Assembly: GCA_029262675.1 (NCBI GenBank)
Contig: JAJCYW010000009.1
Coordinates: 47,198 to 111,197 of the forward strand
Length of the DNA: 64,000 nucleotides
Reading direction: 5' to 3'
DNA from: Chloroflexota bacterium
GTDB lineage: Bacteria; Chloroflexota; Dehalococcoidia; DSTF01; RBG-16-68-14
Shown: positions 10,539 to 32,342 of the stretch, in pieces
How positions within the stretch are numbered: the stretch's first letter is position 1
Layout: the number at the start of each line of letters is the position of its first letter
Notes under the pieces: generated by a model
What the model was told of the DNA's origin: nothing
What the model saw: the letters and a program-made list of their open reading frames with translations, nothing else
Databases searched by the model: none
Program-made: the position numbers and the translations under genes

Positions 10539-10541
10539 GGT

Positions 10542-14662: not shown

Positions 14663-16366
14663 TTGGCTATATTGATTGGTGGCTGCGGAGGCTCCAACGC
14701 CTCGGCCAAACGACCTTCAGAGCATAGATTCACTGCTTGCTTACCGAGGAGATCCAAATTGGCCGAGTACCTCTGGTGGAAACACGGCGTTATCTACCAG
14801 ATCTACCCCCGCAGTTTTCAGGACTCAAACGGTGACGGTATTGGCGATCTGAAGGGCGTGATCGATCGCCTTGATTACCTCAACGACGGTACGGAGCAGT
14901 CGCTCGGTATCGATGCGATCTGGTTCTCGCCAACGTATCCATCGCCGATGGCGGACTTTGGATACGACGTGTCCGACTACGAGGACGTGCATTCGGACTT
15001 CGGCGATCTGGCGACGATGGACCGATTGATCGAAGAAGCGCATAAGCGCAATATTCGGGTCATCCTTGACTTCGTCCCGAACCACACGTCGTCACTGCAC
15101 CCATGGTTTCTCGAATCGCGAACGTCAAGAGACTCGCCGAAACGCGACTGGTACGTATGGCGGGACGCGAAACCGGAAGGAAGCCCGCCCAACAACTGGA
15201 TCGCGGCGTTTGGCGGGCCGGCATGGGAATGGGACCAGAACACGCATCAATACTATCTGCATTCATTCCTCGTGGAGCAGCCCGATTTGAACTGGCGCAA
15301 CCCAGAAGTCGTCGCGCGGATGCACAACGTGCTTCGATTCTGGATGCGGCGCGGCGTCGACGGCTTTCGTATCGATGTGATGGACCGAGTCGTCAAAGAC
15401 CCGGAGCTGCGCGACAATCCACCACAGACCAATCCCCGGTACCGAGAAATGGCCCAGACCGCGCTCCAGATCCACCAGTACGATGTTAACTGGCCGGACA
15501 TCATCGACATCGTGCGCGGCATACGCAGCGTCGTGGATGAGTTCCCGGAGCGCATGACCGTTGGAGAAGTCTTCGGGCGGCCGAAACAAATCGTCGAGTA
15601 CTACGGTACGGACGGCCACGACGGACTCCACTTGGCGTTCAACTTTCCCTTCGTTCGCATTCGGGACAAACGTTGGACAGCGGAGCATGTGCGGAACGTT
15701 GTCGATGCCTTTGAGCAGGCGCTGACCCCAGGCGCCTGGCCGAACCACGTCTTTGGCAACCACGATGTAGACCGCTTGGTCAGCCGTGTGAATAACGACG
15801 GGCGGGGACAGGAGCGGGCGCGCCTTGCGGCGCTGTTGCTACTCACCGTGCGCGGCACGCCCTTCATCTACTATGGAGAAGAACTCGGCATGGAGAACGC
15901 GGTTATCCCGGAGGAGAAGCTCCAAGACCCGGCACGCATCTTCGCGCCCGGGCGCGATCCGGAGCGGACGCCGATGCCGTGGACCCGGAAGGGCGGTTTT
16001 ACAACGGGCGAGCCGTGGCTGCCGTACGGCGACCTGACGCAAAACGTCGCCGACCAAGCCGGCGATCCGCGTTCGCTGCTCACGCTCTATCGCCGCCTGC
16101 TCTGGTTCCGGCGTGCGTCTGATGCGCTGCGGGTTGGCGACTATACACCGGTCGACGTCGCGGCAGATGGTATCTTCGCCTACACGCGGACGACCGGAGA
16201 CGACCGTCTTCTTATGGTGCTCAACTTTACGACCGACATCGTTGACGTGGTTCTGCCGGAGGACTTGCGCGTGACAGCAACGGTCATCGGGACGCACGGC
16301 GAGCCGGCGGCAACGCAGAAGATGACGCTGGCTGGAAACGAAGGGCGCGTACTGCGCTTGGCGTAG
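14663..16366 (+). CDS. GH13 alpha-glucosidase / oligo-1,6-glucosidase-family (TreS-like) glycoside hydrolase
   Basis: WWKHGVIYQIYPRSFQDSNGDGIGDLKGVIDRLDYL...GIDAIWFSP...ILDFVPNHTS...DWYVWRD are GH13 conserved regions I-II. TTG start at 14663. Confidence 0.8.
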   Translation: MAILIGGCGGSNASAKRPSEHRFTACLPRRSKLAEYLWWKHGVIYQIYPRSFQDSNGDGIGDLKGVIDRLDYLNDGTEQSLGIDAIWFSPTYPSPMADFGYDVSDYEDVHSDFGDLATMDRLIEEAHKRNIRVILDFVPNHTSSLHPWFLESRTSRDSPKRDWYVWRDAKPEGSPPNNWIAAFGGPAWEWDQNTHQYYLHSFLVEQPDLNWRNPEVVARMHNVLRFWMRRGVDGFRIDVMDRVVKDPELRDNPPQTNPRYREMAQTALQIHQYDVNWPDIIDIVRGIRSVVDEFPERMTVGEVFGRPKQIVEYYGTDGHDGLHLAFNFPFVRIRDKRWTAEHVRNVVDAFEQALTPGAWPNHVFGNHDVDRLVSRVNNDGRGQERARLAALLLLTVRGTPFIYYGEELGMENAVIPEEKLQDPARIFAPGRDPERTPMPWTRKGGFTTGEPWLPYGDLTQNVADQAGDPRSLLTLYRRLLWFRRASDALRVGDYTPVDVAADGIFAYTRTTGDDRLLMVLNFTTDIVDVVLPEDLRVTATVIGTHGEPAATQKMTLAGNEGRVLRLA

Positions 16367-16520
16367 CTGCCACAAAGCCGTCGGGCGAGAGCCAGGCTTG
16401 CGCAGACCGCGCCGAGACGTCGCGCCGAATCTGGCGCGTCTCGTTCGGAAGGGAAATCGGTGGTTGGCTGCGAGGTCGCTGGTAACGCGGGGTCGTGGGA
16501 GGTCAAAACTCATCCATATC

Positions 16521-16582
16521 TGTGGGCTGCATTCGCAACTCCTTCGGCTGCGCTAAGGACAGGCTCTCTGCCTGGGAAGCAT
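16521..16582 (+). repeat. intergenic repeat family, copy B (degenerate at the tRNA-like end)
   Basis: GCAACTCCTTCGGCTGCGCTAAGGACAGGCTCTCTGCCTGGGAAGCA aligns with copies A and C. Lies between the GH13 stop and the glgA start. Confidence 0.45.
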
Positions 16583-16742
16583 CGGTTCGCGGTGCGCAAA
16601 GGTGGGGGAGAGTGCGGCTTGAGGCCGCTTGCGGGCGTGAAGTTCATGTGAACGTCCGGCTCCTCATGGTATGGTTCAGGCCTAGATCGTCGGGGCCGAC
16701 TGCCGCGGTCCAGCGTCTGGTCGGCCTAGCAGCGAATGAACG

Positions 16743-18200
16743 ATGACGTTGAGACCGCTTCGGATTCTATTCGCGGCTGCGGAAGCCTATCCCTTTGCCA
16801 AGGTTGGCGGCCTTGCCGATGTTGCTGCCTCCTTGCCGAAAGCGCTCACGGGACTAGGTCACGATGTCGTGACGGTCGTGCCCGGGTATCCGTCCGTCCC
16901 GAGAGCGCGGCTGGAGTTCAAATTGGAGATACCGATCGCCGAACGAGTCGAGGTCGCTACGGTCTATAGCTATGCGATTTGTGGCGGGCAGATGTTCACA
17001 GTCTCGAACGATGCCTACTTCGGGCGCGATCGGATCTATGGCTATGAAGACGATGACGAGCGCTTCATCTTCTTCTCGAAAGCAGTTGTCGGAATCGCGG
17101 CACGGACGGGCTTCGAGCCAGATATTCTGCATGGGCATGACTGGCACCTCGGGCTCGCGCCTCAGTACGCCCGCCAAGGACCACACCGCGATGCTCTCGC
17201 GGGAATGGGCATCGTCTTTACGATGCATAACGTTGCTTATCAAGGGCCGTATTCGGAGACCGCGGAGGACCTCATCGGGCTGCAGCAGGCATTCGACGGC
17301 AACCTTCCCTCGCGCGGTATCTCGTTCGCCGACAAGATCACGACCGTAAGTCCCTGTTACGCGAAGGAGATTCTTACGTCGGAACACGGACATGGTTTGG
17401 AAGAACGCCTGCGATCGCGAACCGCAGATCTCCATGGCATCCTTAACGGTATCGATAGCGATGAATTCAACCCCGAGACAGACGGCAATATCAGCGTGCC
17501 CTATAGCGCGCTGGACGTTTCTCAGAAGGCGCCGAACAAGCGCGCGCTCCAGGAGAGGGCTGGACTGACACTGGATTCGAGATCGCCGTTGCTTGCCATG
17601 GTCGCCCGGCTTGTCGATCAGAAAGGGTACGCGATCTTGCTCCGAGCGCTGGACAGAATCGTCGACCTCGGCGCCCAGGTCGTGGTTAACGGCATCGGCG
17701 AAGAGCGGTATGCTCAAGCGCTGGCTGAGGCGGTGGAGCGTCATCCCGGGCACGTCGCCCACCTAGCCACGGATGACGAGACTACGGCACGGCAGGTGTA
17801 CGCGGGCGCAGACCTGCTGCTGGCGCCATCGAACTTCGAGCCGTGCGGTCTCACACCGCTCATCGCCCTACGCTACGGTACGATACCTATTGTGAGACGG
17901 ACGGGTGGACTGGCAGATACAATTGTCGACTACCTGGAGGATCCTGCCGCGGGGATCGGATTCACGTTCATGAGGAAGTACGCAGGCCAGCTTGTGCGGG
18001 CGATAAACAATGGTATTGTCCTGTACAGGAACGTAGACGAGTGGCGGCGTCTGCAGAGGAGAGCCATGTCCGCGGATTTCTCTTGGAAGACATCGGCGTT
18101 GGAGTATGGGCGCCTGTACCGCAGTGCCATCACGGCGGCCTCAGGTGCGGGCCGCGACCGAATTCCGGAAGGCGATCTCCAACCGAGCCGGGGCGGCTAA
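16743..18200 (+). CDS. glgA: glycogen/starch synthase-family GT5 glycosyltransferase
   Basis: N-terminal KVGGLADV motif and C-terminal E..PCGLTPL..LRYGT motif, both characteristic of GT5. 485 aa. Confidence 0.85.
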   Translation: MTLRPLRILFAAAEAYPFAKVGGLADVAASLPKALTGLGHDVVTVVPGYPSVPRARLEFKLEIPIAERVEVATVYSYAICGGQMFTVSNDAYFGRDRIYGYEDDDERFIFFSKAVVGIAARTGFEPDILHGHDWHLGLAPQYARQGPHRDALAGMGIVFTMHNVAYQGPYSETAEDLIGLQQAFDGNLPSRGISFADKITTVSPCYAKEILTSEHGHGLEERLRSRTADLHGILNGIDSDEFNPETDGNISVPYSALDVSQKAPNKRALQERAGLTLDSRSPLLAMVARLVDQKGYAILLRALDRIVDLGAQVVVNGIGEERYAQALAEAVERHPGHVAHLATDDETTARQVYAGADLLLAPSNFEPCGLTPLIALRYGTIPIVRRTGGLADTIVDYLEDPAAGIGFTFMRKYAGQLVRAINNGIVLYRNVDEWRRLQRRAMSADFSWKTSALEYGRLYRSAITAASGAGRDRIPEGDLQPSRGG

Positions 18201-18738
18201 GGAGGATTACCGCAGATCGGACAACGCGCTGCGAAGCGGGTGCGGCGAGAGCCAGCGCGCTTCGATACGACGCCTCGTCTCCCACGGGACTCCCCCAATG
18301 TCACGACGATCTACATGTGCGTAACATTCCTTGCGCACTAGGCGATAGTACCTACGGAGATTGTCATCGCCCGCGTAACCGATATGGTAACGTTCACCCA
18401 TGCCTGGCATGTAGCCTGCCGGGCAGCCGTTTTGGGATGCTTTAACCACGGTTTAAGGACGCCTTAACCTTCTATCCGCTAGCATGACTGACAGTTGGAG
18501 CATTTCTCGCATCGACCCGCGGTAGGGTTCCCGCAGGCGCCAGGCAGCTCCCGGAGGAATACGGTAGGCGAGCACGTCAGGCGTTCCCCCTTTCAGCGAA
18601 CTTCCACATATTTCGGGTGGCCGTCGGGCAGGCCAAAAGAGGAGACAGGCAATCGGATTTAGGTGGGCTGTAGCGATCCTCATTCTTGCCGGCGTCGGTA
18701 TCGCGGGCGCCTCATTCGCGTTCTTCACGCTCCTCCAG

Positions 18739-20511
18739 GTGTCGGAGATGGTGATGCCGCGCGCACGCGATGTCGATCTAGGCACAACCGGCGCGCTTGT
18801 GACCGTCTATGGGACCAGTTCTGACGACAGGCTCGAGGGTATGGCGCTTGGCGACTTCAACGGCGACGGGAACCAGGACATTGTCGTAGCAGCACCCCGC
18901 GCGGACGGCCCTGACGATTCGCGGCGCGACGCGGGAGAAGTCTACGTCATCCTCGGCTCTGAAGCGCTCCCGACCGTTCATGACCTCGCCGAAGGTGCGC
19001 ACCAGACCGTGATTTTCGGAGCGGACCAGTTTGACAGGCTCGGCCGTTCGCTTGTCAGCGCTGATTTCAACGATGACGGTCTTGACGACTTCGCGCTCGG
19101 TGCCCGTGGCGATGGGCTGGCAAATGGGAAGGAAGATGTGGGCGAAGTATACATCTTCTTCGGCAAGCCTCGCATGCCCTCTTCCATCGACCTTGCCAGC
19201 CAGAGCCCGGACGTGTTGCTCATTGGCGCTGACCCGCAGGACGACTTTGGACAGTCGCTTGCCGTTGGCGAACTAGACGGCGACGGCATAGCCGACCTCG
19301 CTCTGGGAGCCGACAACGCAAACGGCGAAAACAATGAGCGCCAGGACGCTGGGGAAGTGCATGTCATGCTGGGCAGCCTGCGATTCCCCTCTCGCTTCGA
19401 CCTCGCCCAAGATTCGCTTGACGCCACGTTCATCGGCGCCGACATCGATGACGAATTCGGGTCCAACATCGCCATCGGCGACGTGAACGGCGATGGTAGC
19501 GATGACCTCGTGGTCTCTGCCGAAGACGCAAACGGACCTGAGAACGGCCGGGGCCAGGCGGGAGAAGCCTACGTCATCTTCGGTCCTGTCGAACCCAACA
19601 CCACAATCGACGTCTTGAATGTGGGCCCCGATGTGACCGTCTTTGGCGCGGACACCGATGACCGGCTGGGCGAAGCTCTGGCGGTGGGGGATGTGACCGG
19701 CGACGGCGTCGCAGACTTGGTCATCGGAGCGCCGAGGGCCGATGGCCCCAACAACGCCCGAAGCAGAGCTGGCGAAGCGTACCTCATTCGCGGTTCATCC
19801 AGCATGCCCTCAGCAATCGATCTGGCCGACGAGGGAAGCGCGCTCGTGATCTTGGGGACGGAGCGCGGCGATGACCTCGGCGGCGCCCTGGCCGCTGGAC
19901 TGGACCTAGACGGCGACGGCATCGGCGACCTACTAGTCGCGGCCGACAACGCCGCAGGTCCGGGCAACCGCCGCTTTAGAGCCGGGGAAGTTTATGTCAT
20001 CCTCGGCTCTAGCGAGTTTGAGCCGCTTCTTGAGCCGTTTATTGACACGGCGCGACGCGCTCAATCGTTCACGATCATCGGCGCGGATGATCACGACGAC
20101 CTGGGCTCGTTTGTCGGTGGAGGAGATTTTGATGGAGACGGTCAGGTCGATCTCCTGTTGGCGGCTCAAACGGGAAACGGACCTGAGGGACGGCGCACGT
20201 CGGCCGGCGAAGTCTACATACTCTCCGGCGGGGACATCGATAGGGATGGCGTGCTCGATATCACAGATAACTGCGTCGATGAGGGGAATCCCGAGCAAGA
20301 AGACGTCGATGGTGACGGTTTGGGTGACACGTGTGATTCATCGCCTACCGCGCAGTCGCGTTCGTCCTCGGCGCCGCGAGCGCTTGACGTAATGCACGTG
20401 GGACAGCTACTCTTGCCTGCATCTGTCCGCATTCGCTGCGGCCCAGAAGCACAATGTGGCGTCGCCGCGAGTGTCCGAGTAGGGCGGGGGAGCGGAGAGC
20501 GCCTGGCTTAA
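18739..20511 (+). CDS. FG-GAP (integrin-alpha-like beta-propeller) repeat protein with C-terminal thrombospondin type-3 Ca-binding repeats
   Basis: About 9 repeats of ...GD(F/V)NGDG..D(L/I)V(V/I)(S/G)A...A(D/N)GP...(G/A)GE(V/A)Y(V/I)(I/F)(L/F)G. C-terminal DRDGVLDITDNCVDEGNPEQEDVDGDGLGDTCD is TSP3-like. A hydrophobic segment lies in-frame upstream (see findings). Confidence 0.7.
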   Translation: MSEMVMPRARDVDLGTTGALVTVYGTSSDDRLEGMALGDFNGDGNQDIVVAAPRADGPDDSRRDAGEVYVILGSEALPTVHDLAEGAHQTVIFGADQFDRLGRSLVSADFNDDGLDDFALGARGDGLANGKEDVGEVYIFFGKPRMPSSIDLASQSPDVLLIGADPQDDFGQSLAVGELDGDGIADLALGADNANGENNERQDAGEVHVMLGSLRFPSRFDLAQDSLDATFIGADIDDEFGSNIAIGDVNGDGSDDLVVSAEDANGPENGRGQAGEAYVIFGPVEPNTTIDVLNVGPDVTVFGADTDDRLGEALAVGDVTGDGVADLVIGAPRADGPNNARSRAGEAYLIRGSSSMPSAIDLADEGSALVILGTERGDDLGGALAAGLDLDGDGIGDLLVAADNAAGPGNRRFRAGEVYVILGSSEFEPLLEPFIDTARRAQSFTIIGADDHDDLGSFVGGGDFDGDGQVDLLLAAQTGNGPEGRRTSAGEVYILSGGDIDRDGVLDITDNCVDEGNPEQEDVDGDGLGDTCDSSPTAQSRSSSAPRALDVMHVGQLLLPASVRIRCGPEAQCGVAASVRVGRGSGERLA

Positions 20512-22328
20512 TGTTCCGCCGTCTGCTGAGCTACTTAGTCCCTCAACGCTTCCTTATGGGTGGCGTCATTGGCACTATGCTCGCGAGCACTCTGGTCGCG
20601 ATGGCCGTGCCGTGGCCACTCAAGCTCATTGTCGACAACGTTCTCGGGCTACAGCCCCTCTTCGGACGCGAGATCGAGGGCACCGGCCAGCAGGTGCTAC
20701 TGGCGTTGGCCGCGTTCGGGTTCATTCTTCTCGCCGCGCTGAAAGGCTCGCTCACGGCTGTCCGAAGCCGCTGGGTGGCCCGCGTGAGCCAATCGGCGGG
20801 CCTCGAAATGCGACGCGACCTATACGCGCAGCTACAGAGGCTCTCCCTTCGCTTCCACGACACCAGCCGGACGGGCGATATTATCACCCGCATCACGACC
20901 GACGTGGACAGGCTTCAGAGCGCGTTCGTTTCCGGCCTCAGCCTATTCTCAGTAGACATGCTGACGGTCCTCGGAATCGCCGTCGTCATGTTCCTCGTAG
21001 ACTGGCAGTTCGCTCTCGTGGCGATGATCGTCCTGCCCAGCCTGCTCCTGATCTACACGAAATTCCGCGGCCGTGTGAAAGAAGCCGCGGTCGAGGCCCG
21101 GCAGAGCGAAGGCGGCATGGCGTCCGTCGCGCAAGAGATGCTCTCATCCATTCGAGTGGTGAAGGCGTTTGGACAGGAAGACCAGGAGCAGGAGCGATTC
21201 GACACGAAGACCAAGTCGAAAGCCGATGCGAGTGTTGAAGTTGCGACCTGGGAGGGGCTGTTCTCACTTTGGATCGAGCTGGCGACGGCAGCAGGTATCG
21301 CCGCCGTCCTCTGGTACGGGGGCTGGCGTGTGCTCGCGGGAAACCTGACGGTTGGGGAGATGATCCTGTTCAGCCAGTACCTGACCACACTCTATAGTCC
21401 GCTTCGACGTCTCAGCCGGCTGACGACCCTGGTGCAGCGCGCGAGCGCCAGCGCCGATCGTCTGAGCGAGATCTTCGACCTCGAAGCTGAGGTGCCAGAG
21501 GCCCCGGAGCCTGTGCATATCGAACGCGCGTCGGGCCGTCTGCAGCTAGAGCAGGTATCGTTCTCGTACTTCGGTGGCCAACCGGTGTTACAGGGCATCG
21601 ATCTCGATCTTGCGGCCGGCGAGACGCTCGCGCTCGTCGGCCCGACGGGTACCGGCAAGTCGACGCTCGTCAGCCTGATCCCCAGGTTCTACGATCCCGG
21701 AGAAGGCCGCATCCTCCTCGACGGCACCGACCTTCGACAGCTAGAGGTCAAAGCCTTACGCAGGCAAATCTCGTTTGTTCTGCAGGACACGGCTCTCTTT
21801 TCTGGCACGATCCGAGACAACATCGCCTACGGTCAGCCGGACGCCGGCGATGCCGCAATAATCGCTGTGGCGAAAGCCGCCAACGCCCACGCGTTCATCG
21901 AGGGCTTTCCTGATGGTTACGACGCTTCTGTTGGCGAGCGAGGCGTCACCCTCTCTGGCGGCCAGCGCCAGCGGATCGCGATCGCGCGTGCGCTCCTTCG
22001 CGACACGCCGATCCTGATCCTGGACGAGCCGACATCGGCCGTAGACAAGCAATCGGAGTCACTCATTCTCGAAGCCCTGTCGCGCTTGATCGAAGGCCGG
22101 ACAGTTGTGATCATCGCCCACCGGCTGGGGACGCTCGACCTCGTCGACCGCGTCGCGGTGCTGTTGGAGGGCAGGATTGCCTTTGCCGGCACGCCCAACG
22201 AGGCGATGCAGAAGCATCCAGACTTGCTGACGTCCCTGCAGGACTCTGGCAGATTAACCGCGCCGCAGGGTGCGGAGCGTGTGCCGCCGGTTACGGCGGC
22301 GAAGCCGAGAGGGAGAAGCCGTACGTGA
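20511..22328 (+). CDS. ABC exporter, fused permease + ATPase (MsbA-like)
   Basis: Six TM helices then an NBD with Walker A GPTGTGKST, signature LSGGQRQR and Walker B ILILDE. The start overlaps the upstream stop (TAATG). Confidence 0.85.
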   Translation: MFRRLLSYLVPQRFLMGGVIGTMLASTLVAMAVPWPLKLIVDNVLGLQPLFGREIEGTGQQVLLALAAFGFILLAALKGSLTAVRSRWVARVSQSAGLEMRRDLYAQLQRLSLRFHDTSRTGDIITRITTDVDRLQSAFVSGLSLFSVDMLTVLGIAVVMFLVDWQFALVAMIVLPSLLLIYTKFRGRVKEAAVEARQSEGGMASVAQEMLSSIRVVKAFGQEDQEQERFDTKTKSKADASVEVATWEGLFSLWIELATAAGIAAVLWYGGWRVLAGNLTVGEMILFSQYLTTLYSPLRRLSRLTTLVQRASASADRLSEIFDLEAEVPEAPEPVHIERASGRLQLEQVSFSYFGGQPVLQGIDLDLAAGETLALVGPTGTGKSTLVSLIPRFYDPGEGRILLDGTDLRQLEVKALRRQISFVLQDTALFSGTIRDNIAYGQPDAGDAAIIAVAKAANAHAFIEGFPDGYDASVGERGVTLSGGQRQRIAIARALLRDTPILILDEPTSAVDKQSESLILEALSRLIEGRTVVIIAHRLGTLDLVDRVAVLLEGRIAFAGTPNEAMQKHPDLLTSLQDSGRLTAPQGAERVPPVTAAKPRGRSRT

Positions 22329-25300: not shown

Positions 25301-26095
25301 GAGCCGACGGACAACTTCGGAACAAGGGTCGCGATCGGTGACGTGAACAACGATGGCTTGGTTGATGTGGTCGCATCGGCAGACATCGCCAGCGGCCCGG
25401 AGAATTCGCGGGGTGAGGCCGGCGAGGCATACGTCGTGTTCGGCCGGGCCTCGTTGAGCGGGACGGTCGACATCGCCGACGGTGGACAGGACGTGACGAT
25501 CCTGGGCGCGGATCTCATCGACAGGCTCGGCGGCGCGCTGGCAGTGGGGGACGTCACGGGCGACGGCGTCGCGGACATCGTGATAAGCAGCGACGACGGG
25601 GACGGGCCCACGAACGAGCGTTTCAACGCCGGCGAAGTGTACGTGATCGCCGGATCACCCGGCTTGTCGGGAACTGTGGACATCCTCACAGGCGGGCAGG
25701 GACTGACGATCTTCGGCGCCGACGTTGGCGATGATCTTGGACGCTCGATGACGGTAGGTAATGTGCTGGGCGACGGCGTACTGGAGATCGTCGTGTCGGC
25801 CTCCAAGGCGGACGGAGAAGCGAACGCCCGCAGCGAAGCTGGCGAAGTCTACGTCATCAATCTGGGAGGCGAAGCTGGACCTGGTGACGCACCCAACGGA
25901 AACGCTAACCATAGCCCTGGCGGACAGACCGCCGCCCCGGGATCAATCTATGCCAGCCTCGGCTCCGGCCCGAGCGCGGGATCTGGAAACGCCGGGCTAC
26001 CCTGGACAACGCTGATCGCGTTGTTAACTATGGGCGGCATCCTGCTGGGAGCGGGAGCTGCCGCACAGATACGCCTACGGGCCGGACATCGTTAG
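22325..26095 (+). CDS. giant (1256 aa) surface protein: signal peptide, ~9 FG-GAP blades, Thr/Pro linker, dockerin-like module, ~9 FG-GAP blades, C-terminal TM anchor
   Basis: N-terminal MRHIAFVTALILVAVFVQVTPAPA (signal). Repeated GDVN(A/D)DG...AGEVY motifs. Linker TPTSTSASTSTPMPTTTPGSTP.... Central module YGDANCDSTVNAVDSAFILQLQAGLISSLPCEDEADVNRDGLLNPIDSTLILQFSAGLL is a dockerin-type duplicated EF-hand. C-terminal LPWTTLIALLTMGGILLGAGAAAQIRLRAGHR. GTGA start/stop overlap with the ABC gene. Confidence 0.75.
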   Translation: MRHIAFVTALILVAVFVQVTPAPAGTLVDIDLAIDTPIARIIGPGFADQLNEVAVGDVNDDGIGDVIIGAPNADVNGPPVRTDAGEVYVVFGGAGVAGTLDLDAGAADIVIQGAEASDSLGRAVASGDVNADGIDDIIIAAKASGDSNARPAAGEVYIIFGSTSLSGTKDILANDQDVRIIGADSGDDLGAALAVGFLTGDADGDLVIGADNADGPPGSSRPNAGEVYLIAGTSGLPAIIDLSGGLSSASAIVYGAEGGDDVGTALGVGNLNGSGPDDLAIGADDAEGPGNARAGAGEAYGLAGELVTGAVDLAGSVARLTILGAEAGDNLGTELAVADVNNDGKADVVVSADTANGPGNGRLDAGEAYVVYGRSSLSETVDIASDEQDVTIFGAGVLDGLGGAVAVGDTTGDGVADIVVSNTNGNGPPGDSRPGAGEAYLIAGSTNLPANLDIATSALFITIYGAGPQDDLGRALAIGNVAGGSGQEIVVAASKADGDPDPPTKCLDNCRANAGEVYVIGLPGADATATPTSTSASTSTPMPTTTPGSTPVVTATDTPAATATVPATPGVTATPPASSTPAATSTAPAIATPTNTLEPTPTATATSAPKVYGDANCDSTVNAVDSAFILQLQAGLISSLPCEDEADVNRDGLLNPIDSTLILQFSAGLLNNLGPSGASATSEVAQAAGVARAPLAQDSLTIDLASASPAARVIGAAIGDQLNELALGDMNGDGVRDILIGAPRANGPDARPNAGAAFVVFRGAGLPATRDLAGSPPDVTIYGSDAFDGLGRSVASGDVNGDGVDDIIVGSLGSGEGNGRPAAGEVHIIFGSSSLGGTIDTANGGEDVRIIGADVADDAGTALAVADMNGDGVADLLIGADDAAGPGNARPNAGEIYLILGRASLGGIVDLAAGGPSATVYGAESGDDIGTALAVGDIDGDGRLDLVIGADDAAGPGNARPDGGEVHVLSGTALSGTVDLASSVRRLTILGAEPTDNFGTRVAIGDVNNDGLVDVVASADIASGPENSRGEAGEAYVVFGRASLSGTVDIADGGQDVTILGADLIDRLGGALAVGDVTGDGVADIVISSDDGDGPTNERFNAGEVYVIAGSPGLSGTVDILTGGQGLTIFGADVGDDLGRSMTVGNVLGDGVLEIVVSASKADGEANARSEAGEVYVINLGGEAGPGDAPNGNANHSPGGQTAAPGSIYASLGSGPSAGSGNAGLPWTTLIALLTMGGILLGAGAAAQIRLRAGHR

Positions 26096-26149
26096 GAGAA
26101 TGAGCATGCCATCGAACGTCAGTAGCACTATGGAGGACAGGTACTAGTC

Positions 26150-27172
26150 ATGGCGAAGAATCCGCTGTTCTTTCTCGTTGGATGCTCGCGATCCGGAACG
26201 ACACTGGTTCAACACATGATGGACGCGCATGAGCAACTGGCGGTTGTCCCGGAGACGCGCTGGTTCGTTCATTGGTTCGACAAGCGCTACGGCATATCGG
26301 AAGACGGATTCGTTACTCCCGATCTGGTTCCCAGGTTGCTTCAGCGGCATCGCCTGTTCAGAGATGCGGACATCGGCGTGACGCAGCAGCAACTGGAACA
26401 CTTGGTTTCGGATGGCGGGAAAATGCGGTATCAGGATTTCGTTTCAATCCTCTTCGATCGCTATGCCGAGGCACGCGGCGTCGCGCACGCGGGAAACAAG
26501 ACTCCCGGATATGTGCGCAGCCTGCAAACCATCCACTTACTGTGGCCGGCCGCCAAGCTTATCCACGTCATTCGCGACGGGCGCGAGGTGAGTCTCTCCA
26601 TCATCCAGAAGCGGACGATGAGAAACCGGCCGGGCAAGCCGGGTGGCCGCTTCGCGACATGGCAAGAAGACGCGGTGACGACGTCGGCGCTCTGGTGGGA
26701 GTGGAACGTCAGGCTCGGCCAGGAAGCCGGCAGAGCCATCGGCCCCGGCCACTACTACGAGCTTCGCTACGACGCGCTCGTCGCGCGCCCTGAGGCCGAG
26801 AGCAGAGCCCTGTGCGATTTCCTAGGTGTGCCGTTCGACGATGCGATGCTCCGCCATCATGAGGGGCGCGTGAAAGCGGATCCCCGCCTGGTCGAGAAGC
26901 ACACAGGGCTAGATAAGCCCGTGACCGCCGGGATGCGAAACTGGAACACAGAGATGCCGCGCGACGATATCGAACGATTCGAAGCCTCGGCCGGCGGTCT
27001 CTTGGAAGAACTCGGCTACGAGTTCGGCGTTCAGAACCATTCGCCGGAGAGTCTAGCGCACGCGGCGCGACTTCGAGGGCTGTTCATGGGACGGCCCTTG
27101 CCAGAAAACTGGCGCGCCTGGAATGGCACGCGCGGTTCAGTAGAGGCGCATGCAGACCACGTGGGAAACTGA
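26150..27172 (+). CDS. sulfotransferase-family protein (Stf0 / Sulfotransfer_3-like)
   Basis: N-terminal 5'-PSB loop FFLVGCSRSGTTL, plus ...HVIRDGREV and ...YYELRYDALV motifs typical of the family. Confidence 0.65.
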   Translation: MAKNPLFFLVGCSRSGTTLVQHMMDAHEQLAVVPETRWFVHWFDKRYGISEDGFVTPDLVPRLLQRHRLFRDADIGVTQQQLEHLVSDGGKMRYQDFVSILFDRYAEARGVAHAGNKTPGYVRSLQTIHLLWPAAKLIHVIRDGREVSLSIIQKRTMRNRPGKPGGRFATWQEDAVTTSALWWEWNVRLGQEAGRAIGPGHYYELRYDALVARPEAESRALCDFLGVPFDDAMLRHHEGRVKADPRLVEKHTGLDKPVTAGMRNWNTEMPRDDIERFEASAGGLLEELGYEFGVQNHSPESLAHAARLRGLFMGRPLPENWRAWNGTRGSVEAHADHVGN

Positions 27173-27287
27173 CGAGATCGGACGGCCAGCGGTCGTTCAA
27201 CTGCAAACAGGCGCGAGAGAACGGAATGGCACGGGATGCCCGTGGAATCAGGCCAAGGACGGCCGGACTGATGAACGGAGGAGAGAC

Positions 27288-29351
27288 ATGGTGCATTTGA
27301 AAGTCCGACCCAGGAATACGATCCTCTTGGCCGCCGCCGTCGCTCTCGGCCTCGTCGTGGTGTGGGGCATAAGCATCATTTACGCAACTCTCACCACGCC
27401 CACCATGGATCTTAAGTCGACGACAGCGGACGTCACGATCCTGGGAGCGACAGGCGGATTACCTCAAGGCGACGCCATCGGCAGGCGTCTTGCGGCGGGA
27501 GATTTCAACGGCGACACGATAGCCGATGTTCTCATCGGCGCGCCAAACGCGGACGGGCCGGGTAATGCTCGCCTCGACTCGGGGGAGGCCTACGTCGTCT
27601 TTGGGCGGAGCGTCGGATCGCCGATCACGGTCGACATCAATAGCGGCGGCCAGGACGTCACGATTGTCGGCGCCGCCACGGGGAACCGCCTTGGCACGGC
27701 CGTCGCAGCCGGAGACGTCAACGGTGATACGTTCGACGACGTCATCATCGGCGCATCGGAGGCCGCCAACGGAGCGCTGTTGAGCGCCGGCGCGGTCTAT
27801 GTATTCTACGGTTCGGCAGCGATTTCCGGCACCAAGGACATCTCCAGCGTCGCGCCGGACGTGACGATCAAGGGCGGCAGCGCCCTGGATAAGCTCGGCC
27901 AAGCGCTCGCCGCGGGCGACATCGACAACGATGGCGATGACGACATCATCATCGGCGCACCACGGTCGCCCGCCGGCGGCCGGGCAGAAGCCGGCCAGGT
28001 CTACGGCATCTTCGGCTCCGGTTCGCTGCCCGCGACGCTCACGACCGGCGCCCTGGGAACGGCCGGATTCTCAATCATCGGCGCGAGTTCAGGCGACACG
28101 CTTGGATCCGACGTCGCCGTGGGGCGGGTGGACAGCGACAGCAACGCGGACATCCTCATCGGCGCGGAAAACGCGCTAGATGCCATCGGGGTCATGAGCG
28201 GTGAAGCCTATCTTGTGCTGGGCTCCCCGGCGCCCGGCAGCTCGATCGATCTGGCTGTCGGAGGCTGGGCTCTGAAAGTCGTCGGCGCTGATGAGGTAGA
28301 CGAGTTGGGTTCCCGTGTGGTTATCGGCGATGTCAACAACGACGGCTTCGGCGACATGATCATCGCGGCACCGAACGCTGCCGGCCCCGGCAACGTCAGG
28401 AACGCGGGCGGGTTCGGCGCGGGCGAGGCTTACGTCGTCTATGGCGCCGCGACCGTGTCCGGCACGGTCAACATCGTGCCCGGCGGGGGGAGCATCACGA
28501 CCATCTATGCCGCCGAAGCCGAGGATGAGATGAGTCGAGTCGGTGCGGCGGACGTGGATGGCGATACCATCGCTGACATTGTGTTCAGCTCCGACGACGG
28601 AGACGGCGCCGGTAACAGCCGGACCGACGCCGGCGAAGCATTCGTGTCCTACAGTTCCTCCACGCTTCCGGCGGCTGGTACTGTGATCGACGTCGCTGGC
28701 ACAGTGCCGGGCTCGGTCACGCCTGCGCTTACCGTCTTCGCCGCGGAGGCGCTTGATGACCTTGGCGCCGGGTATCTCGTTGCCGACTTCGACGGAGACA
28801 ACGGCGGCGACCTGGTGATCGGCGCGCCGGGCGCGGACGGGCCTTCGAACGGTCGCCCTAACGCAGGCGAGGTCTACGTGCTGCTGGGAGCGGCCGGTAC
28901 GCCACCGGGGCCGACGGCGACGCCTACGATCACGCCGACGCCGTGCCCAGGGGGCAAGGTGCCAGCTAGCGGTGGTGGGTGCGGCACGCCCACGCCGACG
29001 CCTCCCAAGCTCCCGTTCCCCGCCGACACCGACGGCGACGGTTGCGCCGACGTGAACGAGAGCTTACCTAAGGCCCAGTCATCTAATGGCGGGGGCCGTG
29101 ACTGGCTGAACCCCTGGGACTACTACAACGTCAACGGTGACGGCGTCATCGATTTGTTGAACGACATCCTCGGCGTAATCCAGCACTATCAGCCAACGCC
29201 AGGAGGAGCTGCGCCGTACGGCGCAGCATTCGACCGCGGGCCGACTACAGGGCCTCACCCGTGGAACATGACGGCGCCAGACGGTGTCATCGACCTGCTG
29301 AACGACGTTTTGGGAGTAATACTGCAGTACAACCCGACGGGCTGCACATAG
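27288..29351 (+). CDS. FG-GAP repeat protein with an N-terminal signal-anchor and C-terminal dockerin-like Ca-binding repeats
   Basis: Start at ATG 27288 with a GGAGGAGAGA RBS. TM segment ILLAAAVALGLVVVWGISIIY. Repeated GDVNGD...AGE(A/V)YV(V/F)(F/Y)G blades. C-terminal NVNGDGVIDLLNDILGVIQHY ... APDGVIDLLNDVLGVILQY pair. Confidence 0.7.
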   Translation: MVHLKVRPRNTILLAAAVALGLVVVWGISIIYATLTTPTMDLKSTTADVTILGATGGLPQGDAIGRRLAAGDFNGDTIADVLIGAPNADGPGNARLDSGEAYVVFGRSVGSPITVDINSGGQDVTIVGAATGNRLGTAVAAGDVNGDTFDDVIIGASEAANGALLSAGAVYVFYGSAAISGTKDISSVAPDVTIKGGSALDKLGQALAAGDIDNDGDDDIIIGAPRSPAGGRAEAGQVYGIFGSGSLPATLTTGALGTAGFSIIGASSGDTLGSDVAVGRVDSDSNADILIGAENALDAIGVMSGEAYLVLGSPAPGSSIDLAVGGWALKVVGADEVDELGSRVVIGDVNNDGFGDMIIAAPNAAGPGNVRNAGGFGAGEAYVVYGAATVSGTVNIVPGGGSITTIYAAEAEDEMSRVGAADVDGDTIADIVFSSDDGDGAGNSRTDAGEAFVSYSSSTLPAAGTVIDVAGTVPGSVTPALTVFAAEALDDLGAGYLVADFDGDNGGDLVIGAPGADGPSNGRPNAGEVYVLLGAAGTPPGPTATPTITPTPCPGGKVPASGGGCGTPTPTPPKLPFPADTDGDGCADVNESLPKAQSSNGGGRDWLNPWDYYNVNGDGVIDLLNDILGVIQHYQPTPGGAAPYGAAFDRGPTTGPHPWNMTAPDGVIDLLNDVLGVILQYNPTGCT

Positions 29352-29358
29352 CCAAGCT

Positions 29359-30366
29359 ATGATGACCATTCCGACTGACAGCTCCGAGATCGTCGACCTG
29401 TTGCGCGAGCGCGTTCCCGAATTTGCCTCCGGCGCACTGCGAATCGAGTCGTGCGAACCGCGGTGGGTCAGGAAGAAGATGCGCAAGCACCTTGCGGAGT
29501 TCGAGGTTCGATTTCTTGGCCAGGGTGGCAGCCGTCAATCAATCTCAATCATCGCGAAGCAGTACCCAAAAGACAGAGGAGGCCACGCCTATCTCGCGAT
29601 GTGCTGGCTGCACGCGCAAGGCTTCTGGCCAGAGGCGTCGTTGAGCGTCTCGAGGGCGCTATTCTACGATCCGCAGCGATTCCTGCTCTTGCAAGGGAAG
29701 GCAGAAGGGGTGGAGGTGGCGTCGGCCCTGCAGGATGGCGAATCGACTCTGCGCCGTCGTTCGCAACAGGCGGCGCATTGGCTGGCGATGCTACACCAAA
29801 GCGATGGGGGCGGGTTCAAGCGTTCGCGTGCCAGTGCCGTGCGTTCGATTCACTCGCGGTTGAGGCGGCTCGCGAAGGAGTATCCTGACATCCAACCTCG
29901 TCTCGATCGCTTCGGCGAAGAGCTCGTGCAGCGGCTGCGGGACTCCCGGGAGTGCCCCTCCGTACCGACTCACGGCGACTACCATCCGAAGAACATCTTT
30001 GCCCAAGATGACCAGGTGACGGTCATTGACCTCGATCACTTCGGCTTGCGCGAGGCGGCCGCCGACGTTGGGTATTTCCTCGGTCAGATGGCGATTATGG
30101 CGTACCTGAAGCTCGGATCGTTCTCCGCTGCCCTGCCTGCAGTCGATAGCTTCCTGGAAGCGTACCACGACCGCGCAGACCTTCCTGTGCCCTGGGATCG
30201 CACGGCAACTCATGTCAGCCGTACCTTCGTCCAGAGCCTTCACTATGAACTCTGCGTCCTCCGCAACGGGCGGACGGACCTCATCGAAGGGTGGCTCCAC
30301 CAAGCAGAGCAATGGCTCCAATGTGAGAGCCCGGACGGAATCGAAGAGTTACTCGGCAAGTCGTGA
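29359..30366 (+). CDS. protein-kinase-like phosphotransferase (APH/CotS/maltokinase-like family)
   Basis: Brenner catalytic motif HGDYHPKN and metal-binding IDLDHFG. About 335 aa. The start lies 8 nt after the upstream stop. Confidence 0.6.
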   Translation: MMTIPTDSSEIVDLLRERVPEFASGALRIESCEPRWVRKKMRKHLAEFEVRFLGQGGSRQSISIIAKQYPKDRGGHAYLAMCWLHAQGFWPEASLSVSRALFYDPQRFLLLQGKAEGVEVASALQDGESTLRRRSQQAAHWLAMLHQSDGGGFKRSRASAVRSIHSRLRRLAKEYPDIQPRLDRFGEELVQRLRDSRECPSVPTHGDYHPKNIFAQDDQVTVIDLDHFGLREAAADVGYFLGQMAIMAYLKLGSFSAALPAVDSFLEAYHDRADLPVPWDRTATHVSRTFVQSLHYELCVLRNGRTDLIEGWLHQAEQWLQCESPDGIEELLGKS

Positions 30367-32342
30367 CACAACGGATTCCATTTGCACTCGTCCACCACGC
30401 CAACCAGTACCTGATCACGAACGGATACGAGAATCGCGAGGGAGTGTCTAACGTCCTCGATCGGCTCTCGTCGTTCCTTGAGCTTCACGAGCGCTTTAGA
30501 ATCCCATTCAACCTGCACATAAGCGGCACCCTCATCGAGGCGATCCTTTGGTACCGGCCGCGATTTCTGAATCAGGTGAAACGCCTGCGCGAAGCCGGGA
30601 TCGTGAAGCTCGTCGGTGGCTCGTACGGCCAGAACATCATGCCGCTCTCTTCGCCCGAGCATAACCGTCGGCAGCTCCGAGAGCTCCTGAGCGTCTATGA
30701 GCGACACCTCGATTGTCCGCCGGAGACTGTCAAGGTCTGCTGGATACCAGAGCGCGTCTGGAGCACTGAAGCCCTAGCTTCGGCTCTAACAGATGGCGGT
30801 CTTCCCAACGGTGGGTATCGCGCCGTCCTGCTGGACGATCGCTTGCTCTACGACATTGGACGGGCGTATGAAGGCAGTTCTCGTCAGCGCTTCGACGCGA
30901 CCGGTCCGGCGGACGTCCTACCGTGGCCTGACGGCGAGGCGGAGGGTTGGGATCCCGAGAGCGTCTGCGCGATCGCGATCGAATCAGGGAAAGGCCTGGT
31001 CGCCATACCGTTCTCGGCCGGAGTTCGTTACGCAATCCCACCGTCCCGTGAAGGTCATTGGAGCTTCCTGTCGTCGTTCGTCGCCCGACTGCGCGAACAC
31101 GGGCGGCCAAATTCGATCCTCGTATTCGCCGACGACGTTGAGAAGTCGGCCGGTATTGGAAGCTGGGATGCACGAGGTCCGGCTCAATACCGAGCTCTTT
31201 TGAAGTGGCTGGTGAAACATGAGGGGCTACGTCCTGTATTCCTCGACGAGTGGCTTGGCGAGCTGCCTGAGAAGATGCCGCAGAGGCCCATTGATGACGG
31301 AACATTCTACGAACTCGATCGTCAATGGGGAGCCAGCAACGACTATCGTGGTTGGTGGGACAGCGATGCCTGGCGCCCACATCGCGGCTACCTCGAGACG
31401 AGTGAGGCTGCGCTAGCCGACGCTGAGGACGCGGGAGCTGATAAGCGACTGCTGGAGCTTGGCTGGAAGCACCTGCTAGCCTCCTCGTACGAAAGCGGAT
31501 GGTTTGCTGAAACGGGAGGGTCGATTGGGCCAGCACCGTGGTCCCAGGCGCTGGCTAGTCACGCGCGGGCGTCTATAGTGATCGCAGAGGCGGCCAAGTG
31601 GCAGCATGATGTCGATGCGGCGCCGGACGTGAGGCGACTCGATGTTGATGCTGACGGTGAGGAGGAGTTCGTGCTGACCAACGACCAGATCTCTGCCGTC
31701 GTATCTCCAAAGCACGGCGGGAGGCTCGTCTACCTGTTCGAACGCGGAAACGACGGCGGGCGCCTGATGGTCGGTAACCCAACTGACGATTGGAACTGGC
31801 AGCAGGAGCTAAACCGCTACATGGATCAGCCTCCCAACCATCCGGGAGCCTTTGCAGACGTGGGTTTCGAGCACAACGCGTACGAAATCGACGATGTAAG
31901 CTGCGACTCGGATTCAGCAGTCGCTCGCCTCCGCAACACAACTCCGACTAGTCCTCTCACACGATCGAGCAAGACCTTCGCGCTCATGGCCGGCGAGTCT
32001 ATTCTCGTCGTTTGTTACCAGCTAGTAGGGCTTCGATTCCTGTCCACTGAGTTTTGTCTCTCGCCTGACTATCTCAATCTGCTCAGGGACGGGAGCCGGA
32101 ACGTCCGTGCGCTGCGCGGCCCGACGTGGCGAGGCTGGCGCCACGATAACGCTCGAGTCTGGGTTGCGCTGGTGGACGCGGAGCAAACGCAATGGGACAA
32201 GCCAAAGCAGCGTCGCGTTGGACATGGACTCGCTCTGCGTGTGACCGCTCAAACCCCGCACTTCCATGTCGTATTAGGGCTCGGGCGAGTCTCACGAGCG
32301 AAGATGAATCGCGCGATCGATTCTCTGCACAGCGTCCGCTGA
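30363..32342 (+). CDS. GH57-like glycoside hydrolase-family protein
   Basis: N-terminal ...ALVHHANQY and WIPERVW (GH57 region with the catalytic Glu, cf. W(L)xERVW). The GTG start overlaps the upstream stop (GTGA). Confidence 0.5.
   Translation: MTQRIPFALVHHANQYLITNGYENREGVSNVLDRLSSFLELHERFRIPFNLHISGTLIEAILWYRPRFLNQVKRLREAGIVKLVGGSYGQNIMPLSSPEHNRRQLRELLSVYERHLDCPPETVKVCWIPERVWSTEALASALTDGGLPNGGYRAVLLDDRLLYDIGRAYEGSSRQRFDATGPADVLPWPDGEAEGWDPESVCAIAIESGKGLVAIPFSAGVRYAIPPSREGHWSFLSSFVARLREHGRPNSILVFADDVEKSAGIGSWDARGPAQYRALLKWLVKHEGLRPVFLDEWLGELPEKMPQRPIDDGTFYELDRQWGASNDYRGWWDSDAWRPHRGYLETSEAALADAEDAGADKRLLELGWKHLLASSYESGWFAETGGSIGPAPWSQALASHARASIVIAEAAKWQHDVDAAPDVRRLDVDADGEEEFVLTNDQISAVVSPKHGGRLVYLFERGNDGGRLMVGNPTDDWNWQQELNRYMDQPPNHPGAFADVGFEHNAYEIDDVSCDSDSAVARLRNTTPTSPLTRSSKTFALMAGESILVVCYQLVGLRFLSTEFCLSPDYLNLLRDGSRNVRALRGPTWRGWRHDNARVWVALVDAEQTQWDKPKQRRVGHGLALRVTAQTPHFHVVLGLGRVSRAKMNRAIDSLHSVR

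Follow-up and report, generated by a model that had tools for sequence, protein, structure and literature searches.

A gene cluster conserved in several bacterial phyla may make, charge and export an α-glucan-derived product

Introduction

Do the α-glucan enzymes, exporter, sulfotransferase, kinase and surface proteins encoded side by side in a Chloroflexota genome belong to one system, and if so, what does it make? The genes are located in a stretch of 64,000 nucleotides (contig JAJCYW010000009.1 of assembly GCA_029262675.1, positions 47,198 to 111,197 of the forward strand), referred to here in its whole length as the window. In the open reading frame (ORF) list of this 64-kb window, nine ORFs are present on the plus strand between 14663 and 32342, at the coordinates given in a first-pass annotation of the same DNA. 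They encode a GH13 enzyme, a glycogen-synthase-like GT5 enzyme (GlgA), three FG-GAP β-propeller proteins (FG1, FG2, and FG3), an ATP-binding cassette (ABC) exporter, a sulfotransferase, an APH-fold kinase, and a GH57-like enzyme. The first-pass annotation had read them as a cluster building a sulfated or phosphorylated α-glucan or glycolipid together with a Ca-dependent surface scaffold for its display. Our analysis favours a cluster that makes, charges, and exports an α-glucan-derived product, with the FG-GAP proteins as lineage-specific partners, a reading to which we assign a probability of roughly 0.55.

Results

The GH57-like gene marks a cluster conserved across phyla

The last gene of the region (30363–32342, plus strand) encodes a GH57-family enzyme (PF03065 Glyco_hydro_57, 44 bits against a cut-off of 21) and represents the signature gene of the cluster. 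A genome scan for this gene, with one genome per species, yielded 80 loci, of which 52 are fully flanked, having at least 6 kb on both sides. Neighbours were identified by tblastn with the proteins of the window and counted when co-directional and within 8 kb. The loci belong to Actinomycetota, Chloroflexota, Acidobacteriota, Myxococcota, Geobacteraceae, and Bacillota, spanning at least five phyla. The GH57-like gene is accompanied by APH genes (zero to four copies) in 67 of the 80 loci (49 of the 52 fully flanked), and by an ABC exporter 35–56% identical to that of the window in 51 (40), nearly always directly adjacent and co-directional. GT5 genes are found beside it in 33 loci (22 of those fully flanked), and a sulfotransferase (44–55% identical) in five (three).

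Individual loci bring these genes together more completely. One metagenomic contig (L087) contains all five. Its APH, GT5, GH57-like, and sulfotransferase genes run in one direction, alkaline-phosphatase-family genes come next, and the ABC exporter is encoded ~5 kb downstream on the other strand. Two other loci (L005 and L019) combine APH, GH57-like, sulfotransferase, and ABC genes, and the bacterium HR25 possesses APH, GH57-like, and ABC genes together with three further APH genes and a β-propeller gene. Moreover, homologues of the GH57-like protein occur in three forms, namely alone (~670 residues), behind GT5 (~1150 residues), or fused to APH (~1000–1100 residues). GT5 domains are present in 16 of the 120 best homologues (Geodermatophilus, Modestobacter, Arthrobacter) and an APH domain in 22 of them (Polyangium, Blastocatellia).

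The fusions, the synteny, and the five-gene contig together identify GlgA, the ABC exporter, the sulfotransferase, the APH kinase, and the GH57-like enzyme of the window as one conserved system. The linkage that the first-pass annotation had supposed is thus kept for these five genes in the neighbourhood comparison. The window would hold a rearranged copy of this widely conserved cluster, interleaved with the genes of three FG-GAP propeller proteins.

The same observations bear on the idea that ordinary glycogen genes (GH13, GlgA, and a GH57 branching enzyme) lie by chance beside unrelated surface, transporter, and resistance genes. Co-directional gene runs are common, glgA and the GH13 gene are set off by gaps of 376–450 nucleotides (nt), and the promoter and terminator scans described below are uninformative. 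However, fusions and cross-phylum synteny tie the GT5, GH57-like, APH, ABC, and sulfotransferase genes to one another. In addition, the GH57-like proteins form a compact family (108 library representatives at E ≤ 1e-30 among 1.84 billion), which by sequence is distinct from the GH57 branching enzymes, and the best structural match of the GH57-like protein is a 4-α-glucanotransferase. We consider a chance neighbourhood the least probable of the alternatives; it is contradicted for the five core genes and still possible for GH13.

The Bacillota loci (L052–L054, L058, L059, L066, L068, L069, L072, L078, and L085, at ~6000–13000) have a different layout, in which no ABC exporter is present. The genes are arranged in the order of a ~215-residue protein, a GT4/5 glycosyltransferase, APH, GH57-like, and a downstream gene, which is a Wzx-like flippase in L052, the sole locus scanned for that gene. 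The ~215-residue protein is probably the HipA_2 family encountered in the accessory census below. This layout is reminiscent of the spore-coat pair cotSA–cotS, but the kinase falls under the cut-off of the CotS model.

Two further observations concern the GH57-like family. Stand-alone GH57-like proteins that lack GT5 (P0003, P0006, P0008, and others) are often named 'starch synthase' in public data, by one source, a name probably carried over from the fused forms as a systematic annotation error. In two loci (L025, 7316–10157; L086, 11380–13585), the GH57-like gene is apparently split into two ORFs, which could reflect a frameshift, a pseudogene, or an assembly error.

Predicted enzymes of α-glucan chemistry

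The GH57-like protein has a two-domain architecture as found in the 4-α-glucanotransferase of Thermococcus litoralis. Among solved structures, the family profile matches only this enzyme (1K1W, E 5e-21), in an alignment that extends over the two catalytic motifs into the beginning of the C-terminal domain and pairs WxPERVW with WLTERVW, and DDxEK with HDDGEKF. GH57 enzymes are composed of a catalytic (β/α)7 barrel followed by a helical bundle, with the Glu nucleophile in conserved sequence region 3 (CSR-3) and the Asp proton donor in CSR-4 (PMC6037648). Both residues are present in the GH57-like protein, within the motifs W127-P-E130-R-V-W133 and D257-D258-x-E260, which do not vary among 20 homologues. 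By eye, the N-terminal region reads HHANQY instead of the usual H-x-HQP type, whereas CSR-3 and CSR-4 are clear. The AlphaFold2 (AF2) model (pLDDT 87, pTM 0.90) has 1K1X as its best PDB match in a fold search (E 1e-24), followed by the GH57 structures 1UFA, 7E1Y, 5WU7, and 4CMR. From its context, through the fusion to the GT5 glycogen synthase, the enzyme may act on α-glucans.

The GT5 gene (16743–18200, plus strand) encodes a GlgA-like, cytoplasmic α-1,4-glucan synthase of the ADP-glucose type (TIGR02095; PF08323 and PF00534). The protein aligns in full length (residues 7–460) with the GlgA structures from E. coli and A. tumefaciens (2QZS and 1RZU, E 5e-80) and contains the KxGGL motif of GlgA as AKVGGLADV. 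It scores 473 bits with the GlgA subfamily model TIGR02095 (cut-off 328) and stays under every GlgA equivalog cut-off, the best being NF001898 (433 bits versus 603). Its best homologues (48–55% identity) adjoin or are fused to GH57-like genes in three of the three contexts looked up, while ordinary GlgAs are 42–45% identical to it. The window GlgA therefore does not qualify as a housekeeping GlgA, since the equivalog models were all missed and its closest homologues are cluster-associated; it appears to belong to a cluster-associated GT5 clade. No glgC, glgB, or glgP was seen among the window ORFs scanned.

Upstream of glgA, the GH13 gene (14663–16366, plus strand) encodes an α-glucosidase or transglucosidase (PF00128, 446 bits). 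Its closest solved structures are the Halomonas α-glucosidase 3WY1 (E 3e-130), QsGH13, and XgtA, aligned from residue 36. The families assigned at first pass to GH13, GT5, and the GH57-like gene are upheld by Pfam and NCBIfam profile matches. However, the inclusion of GH13 in the glucan cluster is not borne out, because tblastn found relatives of it in none of ~170 related loci and a 376-nt gap separates it from glgA. Although adjacent and co-directional, GH13 is not demonstrably a member of the conserved cluster as judged from these comparisons.

Kinase and sulfotransferase

The kinase gene (29359–30366, plus strand) encodes a cytoplasmic, APH-fold (eukaryotic-like) small-molecule kinase (PF01636, 51 bits against a cut-off of 23). 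The ATP-binding Lys, the catalytic HGDxxxxN loop, and the DxD metal site of the APH fold are all kept, and K67, H205-G206-D207, N212, D224, and D226 show no variation across 15 orthologues. A maltokinase (Mak/Pep2), as suggested at first pass, was not recovered. No maltokinase family is among the NCBIfam matches of the kinase at E ≤ 0.01, in a library that included the maltokinase model TIGR02457 (which weakly matched another protein), and no Mak structure appeared at E ≤ 1 in the PDB profile search. The weak named relatives are LxmK, APH(3'), the corramycin phosphotransferase, and MTR kinase.

The sulfotransferase gene (26150–27172, plus strand) encodes a cytoplasmic enzyme dependent on 3'-phosphoadenosine 5'-phosphosulfate (PAPS). 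Its only Pfam matches are Sulfotransfer_3 (PF13469, 114 bits) and Sulfotransfer_1 (41 bits), and NCBIfam adds only NoeE, matched over 33 residues (28 bits; cut-off 500). The 5'-phosphosulfate-binding motif GCSRSGTT and the 3'-phosphate-binding motif IRDGREVSLS are kept in the cluster orthologues (46–56% identity), with R14-S-G-T-T18 and R142-D-G-R145 plus the following Ser invariant in eight of them. In the PDB, its profile matches TPST1/2 (E 4e-24), StaL, and the CurM/OLS sulfotransferases, as well as, only weakly, two entries of mycobacterial type. None of these is labelled Stf0 and no Stf0 Pfam match was obtained; the Stf0 type proposed at first pass gives way to a Sulfotransfer_3 enzyme, of TPST/CurM type by its closest solved relatives.

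Orthologues of the sulfotransferase adjoin GH57-like, APH, or ABC genes in ten loci (L005, L019, L049, L061, L075, L081, L087, L090, L103, and L112). In the Geobacteraceae version, a bifunctional ATP-sulfurylase/adenosine 5'-phosphosulfate (APS) kinase, that is, a PAPS synthase, is located between the sulfotransferase and the exporter, which would support real sulfation. Moreover, cluster sulfotransferases and kinases occur as two to four tandem paralogues, as expected if one scaffold is modified at several positions.

Larger tandem arrays of three to five sulfotransferase paralogues were also found (L090, L097, and L098, and L140, L160, and L165) in a metagenome scan with the sulfotransferase profile, whose contigs are mostly too short to show a neighbourhood. 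The closer arrays (41–49% identity) have ABC and APH neighbours in L090, the only such contig long enough to show neighbours, and the distant arrays (~30% identity) are on long contigs with no other cluster gene. In the window itself, a second sulfotransferase-like ORF of 459 residues (5107–6486, plus strand; Sulfotransfer_3 24 bits, under the cut-off of 27) is positioned 20 kb upstream of the cluster.

The relatives of these two enzymes raise the possibility that the kinase, the TPST-like enzyme, and the exporter modify a ribosomal peptide, as in RaxST/RaxX/RaxB or the class V lanthipeptides, or the FG-GAP proteins themselves, with the glucan enzymes glycosylating the peptide or being unrelated. 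TPST1/2 are the best solved matches of the sulfotransferase profile, LxmK and the corramycin phosphotransferase are the best NCBIfam and PDB matches of the kinase, respectively, and FG2 contains a long Thr/Pro linker. However, within this broad Pfam family TPSTs are simply those members whose structures have been solved, and LxmK reaches 36 bits (cut-off 315). The cluster has no lyase or cyclase partner, no conserved small ORF was found in five intergenic regions of the window (including 18201–18651), and neither the window exporter nor its relatives in L001–L005 contain a C39 peptidase domain (only PF00664 and PF00005). The signature gene, moreover, is a GH57 enzyme that is fused to glycogen synthase or kinase. 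We regard peptide or protein modification as highly improbable, and a cluster for a ribosomally synthesized and post-translationally modified peptide is not supported, given no precursor ORF, no C39 exporter, and a class-defining enzyme (LxmK) far under its cut-off.

The exporter and its accessory genes

The exporter gene (20511–22328, plus strand; longest ORF from 20454) encodes a half-size ABC exporter with an MsbA/NdvA-like fold. It is composed of a transmembrane domain (PF00664, 181 bits) and a nucleotide-binding domain (PF00005, 119 bits), without a peptidase domain. It remains under all NCBIfam equivalog cut-offs, scoring 355 and 286 bits with the NdvA/ChvA models.

We surveyed 107 unlabelled co-directional neighbours of the cluster, with additional spot checks. 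The survey identified 13 glycosyltransferases, eight HipA-like kinases, six phosphodiesterases, five further APH proteins, four sugar nucleotidyltransferases (one GlgC-like), four sulfatase-like proteins with DUF5666, three DSP-type phosphatases, and two APS kinases, one of which is the PAPS synthase of the Geobacteraceae version. Locus layouts and one spot check led us to judge that the glycosyltransferases come mostly from the Bacillota versions.

Several of these accessory proteins are predicted to act outside the cytoplasm. In three Acidobacteriota loci (L016, 18412–20428; L063, 18381–20350; L073, 16177–20635), the exporter is followed by a DSP-type phosphatase bearing a signal peptide, which in turn is followed by a GlgC-like nucleotidyltransferase in L016 and by a CarboxypepD_reg/TonB-receptor-like outer-membrane barrel in L073. 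A barrel of the same kind directly follows the exporter in a fourth Acidobacteriota locus (L048, 17347–21123). HR25 encodes a metallophosphatase with a signal peptide after the kinases as well as a PLL/BNR propeller with a signal peptide, and Rubrobacteraceae have a membrane-anchored ELWxxDGT-repeat propeller at the cluster. In L007 (13887–18813), L086 (15600–20503), and L087 (9661–14439), a sulfatase-like protein of the alkaline-phosphatase superfamily with C-terminal DUF5666 is paired with a type I phosphodiesterase, both without a signal peptide. L007 and L086 additionally encode an ELWxxDGT-repeat protein with a membrane anchor, which completes this recurrent accessory trio.

The secreted phosphatases suggest an alternative in which phosphate and sulfate serve as temporary handles for export or as protecting groups and are removed outside, leaving a neutral, possibly bioactive oligosaccharide. 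Such transient charging is in line with the DSP-type phosphatases after the exporter in Acidobacteriota, the metallophosphatase after the kinases in HR25, the 'sulfatase' and phosphodiesterase genes of several clusters, and the resemblance of the kinase to antibiotic self-resistance kinases. However, genes for a phosphatase or a sulfatase are absent from the window cluster. In L007 and L087, the sulfatase-like protein and the phosphodiesterase lack a signal peptide and would thus act inside the cell, and the survey of neighbours turned up no typical secondary-metabolite enzymes (cyclases, aminotransferases). We consider transient charging unlikely.

The opposite alternative is that the modifications serve inside the cell, either as reversible phosphorylation governing the synthesis and degradation of a storage glucan (compare GWD/SEX4 of starch) or through sugar-1-phosphate donors, as with maltokinase and GlgE, the ABC exporter and surface proteins being separate. 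The GT5 enzyme is a close relative of GlgA. APH-fold sugar kinases such as Mak, NahK, and MtnK transfer phosphate to the anomeric hydroxyl, and the PDB search with the window kinase weakly matched MTR kinase. DSP-type phosphatases and a GlgC-like gene are present in some clusters. On the other side, the exporter accompanies most of the fully flanked loci, next to the GH57-like gene and in the same direction, the DSP-type phosphatases bear signal peptides, the cluster is joined by outer-membrane barrels and surface propellers, and no maltokinase model was matched. An intracellular use is thus quite improbable in our view.

FG-GAP propeller proteins of the window

FG1 (18652–20511, plus strand) consists of an N-terminal membrane anchor, a seven-blade FG-GAP propeller (PF01839, 180 bits, seven stretches), and a TSP3-like Ca-binding tail. 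Its first canonical start is GTG at 18739, with no ATG, GTG, or TTG between this codon and the upstream stop (18565–18567). Upstream of the GTG, an in-frame transmembrane helix is encoded (18664–18735), like the helices of its paralogues. The real start is probably the non-canonical ATC at 18652, 7 nt after GAGGAG, with a mutated start codon as the alternative.

FG2 (22325–26095, plus strand) begins with a signal peptide, followed by an FG-GAP propeller, a Thr/Pro linker, a dockerin-like module, a second propeller, and a C-terminal transmembrane helix (PF01839, 227 bits, ten stretches). Its hydrophobic segments are residues 1–28 and 1223–1249, and its two halves share 57% identity. FG3 (27288–29351, plus strand; longest ORF from 27150) possesses an N-terminal membrane anchor, an FG-GAP propeller (PF01839, 125 bits), and a C-terminal flexitail (NF041520, 124 bits against a cut-off of 40); its start is set at 27288 because an identical database protein has 687 residues. 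The nine ORFs carry the domains named at first pass, except that TSP_3 in FG1 (17.1 bits, cut-off 25) and Dockerin_1 in FG2 (20.8 bits, cut-off 22.9) are under their Pfam cut-offs. The duplicated Ca-binding motif of the dockerin-like module is nevertheless visible at residues 612–662, and no cohesin partner was found among the window ORFs scanned.

The four propeller units of FG1–FG3 are paralogues with 34–57% identity (34–40% between FG1 and FG2/FG3). FG1 and FG2 share start/stop codon overlaps with the exporter gene, to which they are probably coupled in translation, and codon bias is common to the block. In L169, the only informative contig from a near relative, an APH orthologue again follows the closest FG3 orthologue (52% identity). 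Together with the FG-GAP proteins of the window, the ELWxxDGT and PLL/BNR proteins amount to three unrelated kinds of extracytoplasmic propeller beside the cluster in three lineages. These few cases are suggestive of a surface-propeller partner, and with low confidence the FG-GAP proteins may be lineage-specific extracytoplasmic partners of the enzymes. For the Ca-dependent surface scaffold proposed at first pass, conservation together with the enzymes is contradicted by the lack of FG-GAP relatives in other clusters, the FG3–APH adjacency in L169 being the exception.

Another large repeat protein of the window (41290–44322, plus strand; 1010 residues) contains a cupredoxin-like domain followed by many NHL/teneurin-type β-propeller repeats.

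Gene junctions and transcription

The junctions of the region were read off the sequence. FG1 and the exporter overlap in TAATG (20509–20513), the exporter and FG2 in GTGA (22325–22328), and the kinase and the GH57-like gene in GTGA (30363–30366), verifying the co-directional genes and the positions of these motifs reported at first pass. The statement that the genes mostly overlap by 1–4 nt holds for three of the six junctions. In the others, FG2 and the sulfotransferase are separated by 54 nt (26095/26150), FG3 and the kinase by 7 nt (29351/29359), and the sulfotransferase and FG3 either overlap by 23 nt or are separated by 115 nt at 27172, depending on the start of FG3.

The 376-nt gap between GH13 and glgA (16367–16742) and the 450-nt gap between glgA and the seven-gene block (18201–18651) suggest that GH13, glgA, and the remaining block are separate units. 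The latter region is the likely operon start and contains the only intergenic promoter-like site, TTGTCA-16-TATGGT (18361–18388), while the overall count of promoter-like sites is at chance level. Inside the region, promoter-like and terminator-like sites are not more frequent than in shuffled sequence, and a single transcript of the seven-gene block is therefore plausible from spacing. Rfam and tRNA scans gave no match in 18201–18651 and no riboswitch, other RNA, or tRNA in the window.

The GC content at third codon positions is alike over all seven block genes, giving no sign that the FG-GAP genes are recent foreign insertions. Judged by hydropathy, none of GH13, GlgA, the sulfotransferase, the kinase, and the GH57-like enzyme has a signal peptide or transmembrane segment, which assigns them to the cytoplasm, whereas the three FG-GAP proteins are in or on the membrane. 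An anti-phage defence system was not supported, because PADLOC models gave generic ABC-ATPase matches only, with no match for the GT5, sulfotransferase, APH, GH57-like, or FG-GAP proteins.

Elsewhere in the window (53165–62330, plus strand), two paralogous molybdopterin oxidoreductases (926 and 943 residues) flank an ethylbenzene-dehydrogenase-gamma-like gene, a 4Fe–4S subunit, and a MobB/FmdE fusion, a gene set that looks like a type II DMSO-reductase-family operon.

Discussion

A candidate pathway for a charged α-glucan

From the observed gene content, motifs, fusions, synteny, and topology, we infer a substrate, an order of steps, and a role for the FG-GAP proteins. In the cytoplasm, the GT5 synthase would build an α-1,4-glucan chain from ADP-glucose, which the GH57-like enzyme would remodel by transglycosylation (trimming, branching, or ring closure). 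The T. litoralis 4-α-glucanotransferase also forms cycloamylose, so that ring closure of the product is possible. The kinase and, in the minority of versions that have it, including the window, the sulfotransferase would place phosphate and sulfate esters on the glucan. The ABC exporter would then carry the anionic glycan over the membrane, and the FG-GAP proteins would probably bind, hold, or process the exported product, which is the weakest step of the scheme.

Glucan chemistry is supported by the invariant catalytic Glu/Asp, the fold agreement, and the GlgC-like nucleotidyltransferase of an Acidobacteriota version. Export is supported by the cytoplasmic location of the enzymes, the membrane anchoring of the FG proteins, and the outer-membrane barrels after the exporter in diderm versions, together with the ELWxxDGT or PLL/BNR propellers and the secreted phosphatases of other versions. 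The charged α-glucan put forward at first pass accordingly stands in part. The enzymes are linked by fusions, by synteny across phyla, and by the PAPS synthase of a relative, while GH13 and the FG-GAP proteins drop out of the conserved set.

Several points weigh against this reading. GT5 accompanies only 42% of the fully flanked loci by tblastn, Bacillota versions having a more distant GT4/5 enzyme, and glgA of the window, 450 nt away from the block, may have its own transcription. The closest solved relatives of the sulfotransferase modify peptide tyrosine or polyketide intermediates, not sugars, and the best named relatives of the kinase are peptide or antibiotic kinases, albeit with distant scores (LxmK as given above; corramycin phosphotransferase, E 0.005). 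ABC exporters of this fold also move lipids, peptides, and drugs besides glucans. The three FG-GAP proteins have tblastn relatives in none of ~170 related loci, and their more distant homologues (L172 and L173) are in unrelated contexts, not beside cluster genes. In addition, the product is deduced from the genes of a cluster of which no member is characterised.

The intracellular, peptide, and chance readings fit the data less well than an exported charged glucan. A more specific form of the latter is a polyanionic α-glucan, multiply phosphorylated and/or sulfated, linear or ring-closed (cycloamylose-like), with dedicated ABC export and lineage-specific propellers as its receptors or anchors, in a phylum-spanning and previously unrecognised system. 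We put this form forward tentatively, as possible but short of probable.

Comparison with known systems

None of the five known systems compared here has the gene set of the cluster. The bacterial glycogen pathway (GlgC–GlgA with a GH13 or GH57 branching enzyme) resembles it in the full-length GlgA match of GT5 and in a GH57 enzyme with catalytic Glu/Asp. However, the window GH57 is of the T. litoralis glucanotransferase type instead of the branching-enzyme type, the synthase misses every GlgA equivalog cut-off, and the neighbours are kinases, a sulfotransferase, and an ABC exporter, not glgB, glgC, and glgP. The mycobacterial methylglucose lipopolysaccharide (MGLP) locus Rv3030–Rv3037c contains the GH57 enzyme Rv3031 and the GT4 glucosyltransferase Rv3032, and its product is cytoplasmic, methylated, and acylated. 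It likewise pairs a GH57 enzyme with an α-1,4-glucosyltransferase for a specialised, decorated α-glucan oligomer, but it lacks APH kinases, a sulfotransferase, and an ABC exporter, and its transferase belongs to GT4 whereas that of the window belongs to GT5.

Cyclic β-1,2-glucan and osmoregulated periplasmic glucan systems use an NdvB/Cgs synthase and an NdvA/ChvA ABC exporter, with anionic substituents added by periplasmic transferases. The proposed scheme resembles them in that a glucan made in the cytoplasm would be exported by a half-size ABC transporter with this fold and would carry anionic groups. In contrast, the window encodes α-glucan machinery, its enzymes are not NdvB homologues, and its decoration enzymes are cytoplasmic ATP-dependent kinases and a PAPS sulfotransferase.

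Sugar antibiotics are phosphorylated, exported, and dephosphorylated, as for streptomycin (StrA/StrK, streptomycin-6-phosphate) and acarbose (AcbK/AcbWXY, acarbose-7-phosphate), the acarbose cluster also having the GT5-like transferases AcbI/AcbS. A cytoplasmic kinase, an ABC exporter, GT5-like transferases, and, in some cluster versions, an extracytoplasmic phosphatase are shared features. Unlike these pathways, the cluster has no cyclitol or amino-sugar enzymes, the window has no phosphatase, and the kinase family is not that of AcbK. Nod-factor and sulfolipid sulfation (NodH/NodPQ; Stf0) is similar in the PAPS-dependent sulfation of an oligosaccharide and in the PAPS synthase found within the cluster of one relative, but the window sulfotransferase is a TPST/CurM-like Sulfotransfer_3 enzyme.

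No published description of the cluster was found in the literature searched, from which subscription journals were largely absent, so that an earlier description is possible. The GT5 and APH fusions of the GH57-like family are unmentioned in reviews of α-glucan enzymes and of GH57.

Significance

The analysis corrects the 'starch synthase' label on stand-alone GH57-like proteins. It also bears on the export of α-glucan from the bacterial cytoplasm, which is an unsolved question (PMC4981310). Tied to a dedicated ABC exporter by fusion and cross-phylum synteny, GT5 offers a concrete candidate route for such export. Cultivable soil bacteria carry the cluster, among them Arthrobacter/Pseudarthrobacter, Geodermatophilus, Modestobacter, Cellulomonas, Pseudonocardia, Nocardioides, and Paenibacillus. 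If the polyanionic-glucan reading is true, this would be the first genetically defined α-glucan export route in bacteria and a new class of charged surface glycan. The O-phosphorylation of a glucan by APH-fold kinases and its O-sulfation by TPST-like sulfotransferases would both be new. Sulfated or phosphorylated α-glucans would then constitute a new kind of bacterial surface polymer that might serve in desiccation tolerance, ion binding, or adhesion.

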